NCBI GenBank assembly: GCA_021525805.1 | Contig: GCA_021525805.1_3940.1 | Length of the DNA: 64,000 nucleotides | Reading direction: 5' to 3' (one strand) | Origin: a phage | In this document: one piece after another, positions 15,465 to 15,546 of the stretch | Numbering within the stretch: position 1 is the first letter of the stretch | Layout: each line of letters begins with the position of its first letter | Notes under the pieces: generated by a model | What the model saw: only the letters and a program-made list of their open reading frames with translations | What the model was told of the DNA's origin: nothing | Databases searched by the model: none | Program-made: the position numbers and the translations under genes

Positions 15465-15546
15465 CGGGGCGTATCTCAGCGGTCTTCTAAACCGCCGTTA
15501 ACCGAGTAAGTGGAGTATGCGGGTTCGAGTCCTGCCGCCTCGACCA
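15465..15546 (+). ncRNA. atypical tRNA-like element (acceptor stem + T-arm + one internal hairpin GCGGT-CTTCTAA-ACCGC; no recognisable D-arm)
   Basis: acceptor CGGGGCG/CGCCTCG, T-arm GCGGGTTCGAGTCCTGC, CCA encoded; internal loop would read anticodon TCT (Arg) but architecture is non-canonical. Confidence 0.4.

Follow-up and report, generated by a model that had tools for sequence, protein, structure and literature searches.

An element of 82 nucleotides (nt) at positions 15465–15546 of a 64,000-nt stretch of phage DNA (NCBI GenBank assembly GCA_021525805.1, contig GCA_021525805.1_3940.1; the whole stretch is referred to as the window) is probably the gene for a working arginine tRNA. Its anticodon would be UCU, reading codon AGA, and judging from its sequence it would belong to a phage-specific class of tRNAs with a rewired core. 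The source phage is Felix O1-like (Felixounavirus), and the 5-kb stretch around the element is 95–98% identical to Salmonella and Escherichia phages of this genus. The element lies within a tRNA gene cluster whose 22 members are all on the + strand. This count comes from ARAGORN, which called 22 tRNAs in the window and did not have the element among them.

An earlier note on this DNA had described an acceptor stem, a T-arm, an encoded CCA, one clear hairpin and about 23 unpaired-looking nt. All of these are present, base for base, and the linkers measure 7 nt (acceptor stem to hairpin) and 23 nt (hairpin to T-arm). The acceptor stem has 7 base pairs (bp), with a G3:U70 wobble in the window copy, and is followed by a discriminator base and CCA. 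The T-arm has a 5-bp stem and a TTCRANN loop. The hairpin is indeed there, and it can be described further as a normal anticodon arm with anticodon UCU: its stem of 5 bp closes a loop of 7 nt, C32 U33 U34 C35 U36 A37 A38, with U33 and a purine at position 37. A D-arm hairpin between positions 8–9 and 26 is absent, as just 7 nt separate the acceptor and anticodon stems.

The note's view of the element as tRNA-like, with no D hairpin in the usual place, agrees with the behavior of standard tools. ARAGORN makes no call, and the Rfam tRNA model RF00005 accepts the element (31.7 bits, gathering score 29) only when the alignment drops the D-arm, with 4 nt in place of 15 model positions and 20 nt inserted in the variable region. 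This is the lowest score among the 21 tRNA matches in the window (33–63 bits for the others). A standard cloverleaf in an alternative register had been set beforehand as the refuting outcome; neither ARAGORN nor the Rfam tRNA model gives one. Apart from weak tRNA and tmRNA (transfer-messenger RNA) matches, Rfam has no family for the element.

A proposed displaced D-stem and D-loop

The 23 nt between the hairpin and the T-arm had been described as unpaired-looking. This description does not hold, since GAG at 15504–15506 pairs with CUC at 15475–15477 and the two change together in a compensatory manner. The region reads as a displaced D-arm, with D-stem and D-loop both present but rewired. In standard numbering the chain would run 1–7, U8 A9, 22–25, 26, 27–43, bulge, 44, 10–13, 14–21, 48, 49–65, 66–72, 73, CCA. 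Block 10–21, which holds the 5' strand of the D-stem and the D-loop, appears swapped with block 22–43, made up of the D-stem 3' strand and the anticodon arm; the D/anticodon domain would then be locally permuted in a circular sense.

We compared the window copy with a Felix-type set of 45 distinct copies, all exactly 82 nt long and aligned without gaps or indels, and with 175 distinct relatives obtained by looser patterns in IMG/VR. The CUC/GAG bases were not fixed on both sides in these looser patterns, and the hits were then parsed. The IMG/VR scans yielded at least 120 loci each, and counts from them are samples; those for the 175 relatives apply to the matches listed. The parts of the element, with the roles that we propose for them, are as follows.

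15465–15471, + strand: 5' strand of the acceptor stem (CGGGGCG, tRNA positions 1–7), pairs with 15536–15542
15472–15473, + strand: U8 and A9, the first two connector bases; TA in 175 of 175 distinct relatives, with both bases free in the scan patterns
15474–15477, + strand: UCUC, in the proposed role of the D-stem 3' strand (positions 22–25); its core CUC (15475–15477) pairs with GAG (15504–15506)
15478, + strand: A, position-26 analogue where the D-stem analogue meets the anticodon stem, facing the base that precedes the GAG strand
15479–15495, + strand: anticodon arm with stem GCGGT/ACCGC and loop CUUCUAA; anticodon UCU at 15486–15488 (Arg, codon AGA)
15496–15503, + strand: CGUUAACC, a 7-nt 3' bulge or linker and a C (position-44 analogue) facing A15478
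15504–15507, + strand: GAGU, in the proposed role of the D-stem 5' strand (positions 10–13); covaries with 15475–15477
15508–15517, + strand: AAGUGGAGUA, D-loop analogue (A14 A15 G16 U17 G18 G19 A20 G U A21), in which A15514 is the A20 analogue
15518, + strand: U, position-48 analogue and putative partner of A15, by likeness to the canonical Levitt pair
15519–15535, + strand: T-arm with stem GCGGG/CCTGC and loop UUCGAGU, which has the canonical TTCRANN form
15536–15542, + strand: 3' strand of the acceptor stem (CGCCTCG), pairs with 15465–15471
15543–15546, + strand: discriminator A73 and encoded CCA

Covariation argues for this arrangement. In the 45 ungapped relatives, 98.8% of the cells of the proposed structure are paired versus 69.9% in shuffles, and none of 500 shuffles reaches the observed value. 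The covariation score is 0.76 versus 0.19 (0 of 500 shuffles), and double changes are found in 15 of the 20 pairs. When the 3' partner is slid by 1–3 columns, pairing is at most 48%. Compensatory changes affect 6 of 7 pairs of the acceptor stem (98.1% of cells paired) and all 5 pairs of the anticodon stem (100%), and the T-stem has double changes in 3 of its 5 pairs (97.8%). The CUC/GAG helix is paired in 100% of the Felix-type set (n = 45). Its first and third pairs are C-G, whereas between them 41 copies have U-A, 2 have A-U and 2 have G-C, with compensatory CGC/GCG and CAC/GTG variants present.

Among the 175 relatives the triplets are CTC/GAG (55), CGG/CCG (25), CCC/GGG (16), CAC/GTG (13) and CGC/GCG (10), and ACC/GGT, CAT/ATG, CAG/CTG and others also occur. 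Cells of the D-stem analogue are paired in 476 of 525 cases; 1000 shuffles average 306 and never exceed 329. A formal count over 150 core sequences (A4) gave CG 128, GC 8, AU 4 and UA 3 at the first pair, UA 52, CG 50, GC 27 and AU 15 at the second, and CG 90, GC 23 and UA 3 at the third. The pair formed by the base facing A15478 is mostly non-Watson-Crick in the 175 relatives (C.A 76, A.C 48, G.A 15, A.A 13), and A15478/C15503 may be likened to the canonical 26.44 pair.

These data bear on the D-armless tRNA that the earlier note had put forward. In a truly D-armless tRNA of the mitochondrial type the connector would replace the D-arm and the 23-nt region would be a floppy loop; such a molecule could still decode AGA. 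The lack of a D hairpin, which is the part of the claim that stands, is what this explanation would predict, and an energy-based fold does leave the 23-nt region mostly unpaired. However, CUC and GAG covary through many triplet combinations, the region contains a complete conserved D-loop motif (AAGUGGAGUA in the window copy), and a floppy loop would not stay near-invariant across unrelated phage groups. We therefore consider a truly D-armless molecule improbable.

Two other pairings were tried and rejected. The small hairpin that RNAalifold draws between 15502–15504 and 15511–15513 has no double change and is impossible in most subfamilies. A second GAG (15513–15515) was considered as the partner of CUC and stays constant when CUC becomes CGC or CAC.

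Immediately after the GAG strand comes U-AAGUGGAGUA-U, which reads as a D-loop (A14 A15 N U G18 G19 A20 N N A21) followed by U48. It matches the D-loop of the canonical tRNA-Arg found in the same slot of phage JohannRWettstein (AAUUGGAUA). The A after GG was left free in one scan pattern and is an A in every true match. AA(Y)UGGA occurs in 175 of 175 relatives, but TGGA was fixed in later patterns. In 173 of 175 relatives the segment preceding the T-stem has AT as its last two bases, which were free in the pattern. We defined the class by a 7-nt connector (U, A, N, then 3–4 nt) that pairs with the stretch immediately preceding U-AA(Y)UGGA, a 3–10-nt bulge after the anticodon arm (the range of linker or bulge lengths across the superfamily of 175 relatives), and a D-loop motif that ends 1 nt before the T-stem. 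All of these are found in the window copy. Model R1 gives it 102.8 bits, a value to be read knowing that it is one of the training sequences, versus at most 34 bits for canonical tRNAs and 13 bits for canonical tRNA-Arg(UCU).

With this strand order the D-stem would become a continuation of the anticodon hairpin, and the D-loop motif would end just before the T-arm, with G18 and G19 still able to reach the T-loop. The local direction of all strands would be as in a normal tRNA, and the joins 9 to 22, 43/44 to 10 and 21 to 48 would be the only ones in the core to differ. In the canonical core, A9 lies on the 12–23 pair, positions 43, 44 and 10 form a continuous strand opposite 25–26–27, and A21 adjoins the 15–48 layer. 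An L shape looks feasible because the joined positions (9/22, 43–44/10 and 21/48) are neighbours in this known core. By this analogy, we infer a normal L-shaped fold.

A second viral tRNA-Arg(UCU) class has the same rewired topology in other dimensions (L096, L100, L107, L121, L137, L155, L161, L169, L180, L182, L188 and others). Its connector is 9–11 nt long and forms a stem of 5–6 bp (CCCGAC/GTTGGG, CCTCC/GGAGG, CCAGC/GCTGG, CCCAC/GTGGG, CCCCTT/AAGGGG). An 8–13-nt bulge is followed directly by TGGANGGNN, without the AAY bases.

Predicted arginine identity, allelic exchange and spread

When the Felix-type scaffold was scanned with the anticodon left free, all matches but one (CCU) carried UCU, with loop CTTCTAA or CTTCTAC. 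A broader anticodon-free scan gave, among the matches listed, well-formed members with the 7-nt connector and anticodons UCU (42), ACG (26), CCU (9), UCG (5) and CCG (1), that is, 83 of 85 with an arginine anticodon. The identity set of bacterial tRNA-Arg comprises A20, C35, U/G36 and A/G73 (PMC9976931). The element carries C35 and U36 within UCU and a purine discriminator, A15543. A15514 stands directly after the GG of the relocated D-loop motif and may take the spatial place of A20. Host arginyl-tRNA synthetase (ArgRS) would be predicted to charge the tRNA through the A20 analogue, C35, U36 and A73, presumably after excision of the RNA by RNase P, and the product would be expected to read AGA on the ribosome. 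The 175 relatives have G (78), A (61), U (33) or C (3) as discriminator, and 101 of them encode CCA.

AGA is the commonest arginine codon in the 58 open reading frames of the window (270 of 650 Arg codons, 41.5%), and neither ARAGORN nor Rfam finds another tRNA-Arg in the window. In Felix O1 an identical copy lies at 2543–2624 (L002); it is unannotated and partly overlapped by the start of an annotated HNH endonuclease, and the only annotated tRNA-Arg of this phage is ACG. The element bears on an old gap in Felix O1, as the genome paper noted the over-use of AGA, for which a tRNA "might have been expected" but was not found (PMC3185647).

In Escherichia phage JohannRWettstein (MZ501086, 83627–83703) the slot of the element is occupied by a canonical tRNA-Arg(UCU) of 77 nt, between near-identical flanks. 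In the phage collection ~111 records have the canonical allele versus ~103 with the rewired one, and about half of the Felix O1-like phages carry the canonical allele. Large viral tRNA clusters with the element usually, though not always, lack a canonical tRNA-Arg(UCU).

Alternatively, the element could specify a tRNA-shaped RNA that works outside translation, either as a decoy for an anticodon nuclease or a tRNA-binding defence protein, or as a regulator that pairs with AGAAGACC boxes. An unusual body could suit a decoy, and there is precedent for phage tRNAs that counteract defences based on tRNA cleavage (PMC10264068; PMC12475279). Yet U33, A37, the arginine identity set, the 12-bp acceptor/T branch and CCA are all kept, and the element replaces a canonical tRNA-Arg(UCU) allele and fills the one obvious gap in the tRNA set for the commonest Arg codon of the phage. 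We regard a role outside translation as unlikely.

The 82-nt element has matches in 263 records of the phage collection at 80–100% identity (77 at 99% or above, 93 at 80–90%). Among their sources are Felixounavirus, Kolesnikvirus (Erwinia), T5-like Demerecviridae, Asteriusvirus jumbo phages, phi92-like Justusliebigvirus, rV5-like Vequintavirinae and a Vibrio phage, groups that have little else in common. Nearly all copies are left blank in annotation, and a few are entered as tRNA-OTHER, tRNA-Undet or "hypothetical tRNA". In an alignment of 13 copies, compensatory changes occur throughout the acceptor and hairpin stems, and the loop CTTCTAA and both linkers are almost constant. CGUUAACC is almost invariant in the Felix-type set, but the search patterns prescribed TTAA and C15503. 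Many further copies came from pattern scans of IMG/VR, and most relatives likewise sit in a tRNA cluster on the same strand. No match was found in 5,426 complete E. coli genomes, and a scan of one genome per species across 185,579 species gave 3 true matches, all on contigs of metagenome-assembled genomes. On these two genome sets a host origin was rejected.

A decayed gene, also raised in the earlier note, fits poorly with the conservation and covariation of the element across unrelated phage groups. A tRNA gene that had decayed or been rearranged into a pseudogene would account for the lack of a standard cloverleaf, for the records that carry tRNA-OTHER or no annotation, and for a single-sequence fold energy no better than that of shuffles (z = 0.04). 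But identity of 80–100% is maintained over 263 records in unrelated groups with compensatory changes in every helix, and the 45 distinct 82-nt copies contain no indels. This makes a pseudogene very improbable.

The gene immediately downstream of the rewired tRNA-Arg encodes an HNH homing endonuclease in Felix O1 (L002 2595–2987) and in the T5-like phages Roth37 (L003 691–1200) and Kamaji (L009 684–1247). In the heid, JN01 and warpig records an HNH annotation overlaps the rewired tRNA-Arg. Such neighbours may help explain the spread between unrelated phages or the coexistence of two alleles.

Several observations weigh against the assignment of the element to a class of working, rewired arginine tRNAs. 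The CUC/GAG helix is predicted neither by the minimum-energy fold nor by RNAalifold. The D-stem analogue has just 3 Watson-Crick pairs, of which 1 varies in the Felix-type set. Several near-constant positions (TTAA, GTAA, TGGA and the T-loop) were set by the search patterns, so that their constancy is partly built in. Putting the two blocks back into canonical order in silico raises the number of relatives that ARAGORN calls as full-length tRNAs from 0 of 175 (native order) to 174 of 175, with 171 called as Arg; a control with a reversed D strand is called in 175 of 175, and the test thus supports the block lengths and not the pairing. The three-dimensional argument is by analogy with the canonical tRNA core. 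Among the 85 well-formed members, 2 have non-arginine anticodons, GAU in L201 (Ile, loop CTGATAT) and UAC in L244 (Val, loop TTTACAG); these may be anticodon-switched derivatives. The two alleles are not strictly exclusive, as L062 and L063 each have rewired and canonical tRNA-Arg(UCU) on one contig. Finally, expression, processing, charging and decoding of the element are predictions.

Upstream boxes, a tag-like stretch and other elements of the window

The earlier note had pointed to complementarity between the hairpin loop and the box of elements S1–S4. The complementarity is real: GGTCTTCT (15481–15488) is the reverse complement of AGAAGACC, with 6 matches versus 2.2 expected, a number reached by 1 of 100 shuffles. 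It is, however, lineage-specific. The complementary 8-mer is not conserved in relatives, which argues against the element being a regulator of the boxes. The GGT part, located in the anticodon stem, covaries freely (GGG, CGT, TGA and others), and just the loop CTTCT is conserved. Regulatory pairing was rejected on this lineage specificity and on the location of the boxes in promoter-like repeats. AGAAGACC occurs five times on the + strand, at 12148, 14060, 14226, 14681 and 14771. The boxes at 14055–14080, 14221–14248, 14676–14700 and 14766–14793 are part of a longer repeat, ACAGAAGACCNNTTACAGCAA. Two of the AGAAGACC boxes fall in the spacer of a promoter-like TTTACA-16-AATATT/AAAAAT, and GGTCTGG is found ~50–60 nt downstream of each box. 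The AGAAGACC repeats are probably phage promoters or regulatory repeats and not partners of the tRNA.

The element could also be taken for a tmRNA-like, alanine-accepting domain, perhaps working with a tag-like sequence 125 nt upstream (15300–15342), or for a decoy of SmpB. The window copy has G3:U70 and A73 and no D-stem hairpin, the Rfam tmRNA model matches both ends of the element (22.1 bits), and GCAAACGACAAUGUUUUUCUGGCAGUAGCUUGA upstream reads ANDNVFLAVA*, like a tmRNA tag. Yet G3:U70 occurs in just 7 of 45 relatives, the rest having G-C, A-U, U-A, C-G or U-G, and the scores of 22.1 and ~20 bits compare with a gathering score of 47 (RF00023/RF04321). A complete anticodon arm is present, and ARAGORN finds no tmRNA in the window. 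The gene order fits neither a one-piece nor a permuted tmRNA, with the tag-like stretch upstream of both acceptor strands, and this stretch is unchanged beside the canonical tRNA-Arg allele. We rejected the idea on the non-conservation of G3:U70, the low scores and the persistence of the tag beside the canonical allele, and hold a tmRNA-like function to be highly unlikely.

The tag-like stretch as a whole covers 15290–15342 (AAUAAAUGCAAACGACAAUGUUUUUCUGGCAGUAGCUUGA), again with the reading ANDNVFLAVA*, and scores 20–22 bits on the Rfam tmRNA_permuted model versus a gathering score of 47. It is conserved in phage JohannRWettstein (L001, ~1858–1896), where an annotated minus-strand coding sequence of 46 amino acids overlaps it.

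A candidate promoter was found further upstream by a consensus scan.

15143–15171, + strand: sigma-70-like promoter TTGACA-17-TATAGT, 11 of 12 consensus matches, consensus scan only

This promoter-like site lies just past tRNA-Lys and ~290 nt upstream of the element. It is a possible promoter of a transcript that includes the element, which would then have a leader of ~290 nt.

A second tRNA-like element that was not called is located at 15691–15773. It begins with ATGGGAC and ends with GTCCCAT, then G and CCA. It has A1-U72 and G73, and it contains a T-arm. The anticodon, in the loop UUCCAAC, is CCA (Trp, which is missing from the ARAGORN list), and an over-long D region of 26 nt contains CUC-UAAGGCAU-GAG. 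Rfam matches it to tRNA-Sec at just 16.9 bits. The element is found at 76–100% identity in 236 records, (nearly) all of them Ounavirinae, and is never annotated as a tRNA.

At 14816–14900 the window reads GAAGG-TTCGATT-CCTTC ACTCGAC A GAT GTCGAGT TG GTGT-AATGGTA-GCAC, that is, a T-arm and a 3' acceptor strand followed immediately by a perfectly complementary 5' acceptor strand and a D-arm. This resembles a permuted or half tRNA and has no ARAGORN or Rfam call. Between tRNA-Ser(tga) and tRNA-Leu(tag), at 16037–16136, lies a near-perfect hairpin of ~100 nt that gives spurious matches to plant microRNA precursors (MIR473, 32.7 bits, under the gathering score).

Implications and relation to known tRNAs

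Beyond the single gene, we lean slightly towards a wider proposal. According to it, the class represents an undescribed third layout of elongator tRNAs, in which the strands of the D-stem are swapped around the anticodon arm and the D-loop lies beside the T-arm. The layout would be near-confined to arginine tRNAs (five Arg anticodons were found) and fully functional, and would be kept because it hides from host tRNA-targeting nucleases or travels with homing endonucleases; standard tools would miss this isoacceptor family in many phages. The literature covered, including reviews on non-canonical tRNAs, tRNA identity and phage tRNAs, does not describe such a layout, with most subscription journals outside that coverage. 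The layout is probably new.

Nucleases specific for arginine tRNAs exist (colicin D). The layout could be kept by escape from tRNA-targeting nucleases of the host, by hitch-hiking with homing endonucleases, or by neutral descent from one ancestral rearrangement. A single rearrangement could have spread later to all arginine anticodons. Phage tRNAs differ from host tRNAs around the D-loop and escape tRNA-cleaving defences (PMC10264068; PMC12475279). The near-exclusive use for arginine, together with the coexistence of rewired and canonical alleles in one genus, offers a testable case in the debate on phage tRNAs versus tRNA-cleaving defences.

If the tRNA is charged and used, then ArgRS, EF-Tu, RNase P, the modification enzymes and the ribosome would all accept a different joining order of the core strands. 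The class would in that case be a natural experiment on the requirements of the L shape and a new scaffold for engineered tRNAs. It also matters for annotation. ARAGORN misses the class, and tRNA counts and codon-usage analyses of many phages would be short by at least one arginine tRNA. The groups affected include Felix O1-like, T5-like, rV5-like, phi92-like and jumbo phages and many uncultured viruses.

At two loci (L016 10443–10536 and L030 4054–4149) ARAGORN does call the rewired element, as a tRNA-Arg(tct) of 94–96 nt with flanking bases borrowed as the acceptor stem. Some database entries may carry wrong boundaries from such calls.

Among the closest known relatives of the element is canonical tRNA-Arg(UCU), as in the JohannRWettstein allele and E. 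coli argU. Both have acceptor stems of 7 bp, T-stems of 5 bp, the anticodon loop CUUCUAA and an encoded CCA, and their anticodon stems and T-arms are nearly identical. They also share the D-loop heptamer, AAUUGGA or AAGUGGA, and the A after G18G19, C35, U36 and a purine at 73 are also common to both. The JohannRWettstein allele has, in addition, the same genomic slot and flanks. The difference is one of order: in the canonical molecule the 5' strand of the D-stem and the D-loop come before the anticodon arm, whereas in the element they come after it and an 8-nt linker replaces the variable loop.

Parts of a tRNA encoded in permuted order are reportedly also found in Cyanidioschyzon merolae, for which Soma et al. 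are said to have described, in Science in 2007, circularly permuted tRNA genes with the 3' half before the 5' half and a circular intermediate that restores a normal tRNA. In the element, in contrast, the acceptor strands and the T-arm are in normal order and only the inner D/anticodon domain appears permuted; there is no sign that the RNA regains the normal order. Like the element, the tRNA-like domain of tmRNA (RF00023) lacks a D hairpin but has an acceptor stem, a T-arm and CCA, and it shares G3:U70 with the window copy. But it lacks an anticodon arm and depends on G3:U70 for charging with alanine, whereas the rewired class has a full anticodon arm and does not conserve G3:U70.

D-armless mitochondrial tRNAs of metazoans, such as tRNA-Ser(AGY/UCU) (PMC7609411), likewise have no D hairpin and a short connector after the acceptor stem. 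In these tRNAs the contact between D-loop and T-loop is lost and the molecule is flexible (PMC7609411). The phage class, unlike them, has a relocated D-loop motif (AAGUGGA), a canonical T-loop and a putative long-range D-stem; it occurs in bacterial viruses and nearly always serves arginine. Lastly, allo-tRNAs and 8/4 or 9/3 tRNAs, some of them in phages, provide a precedent for natural tRNAs of non-standard secondary structure that standard tools miss or mis-score (PMC5389517). Their 12-bp acceptor/T branch is split differently while the arms keep their normal order (PMC5389517), whereas the rewired class keeps the 7/5 branch and would differ in the order of its inner blocks.

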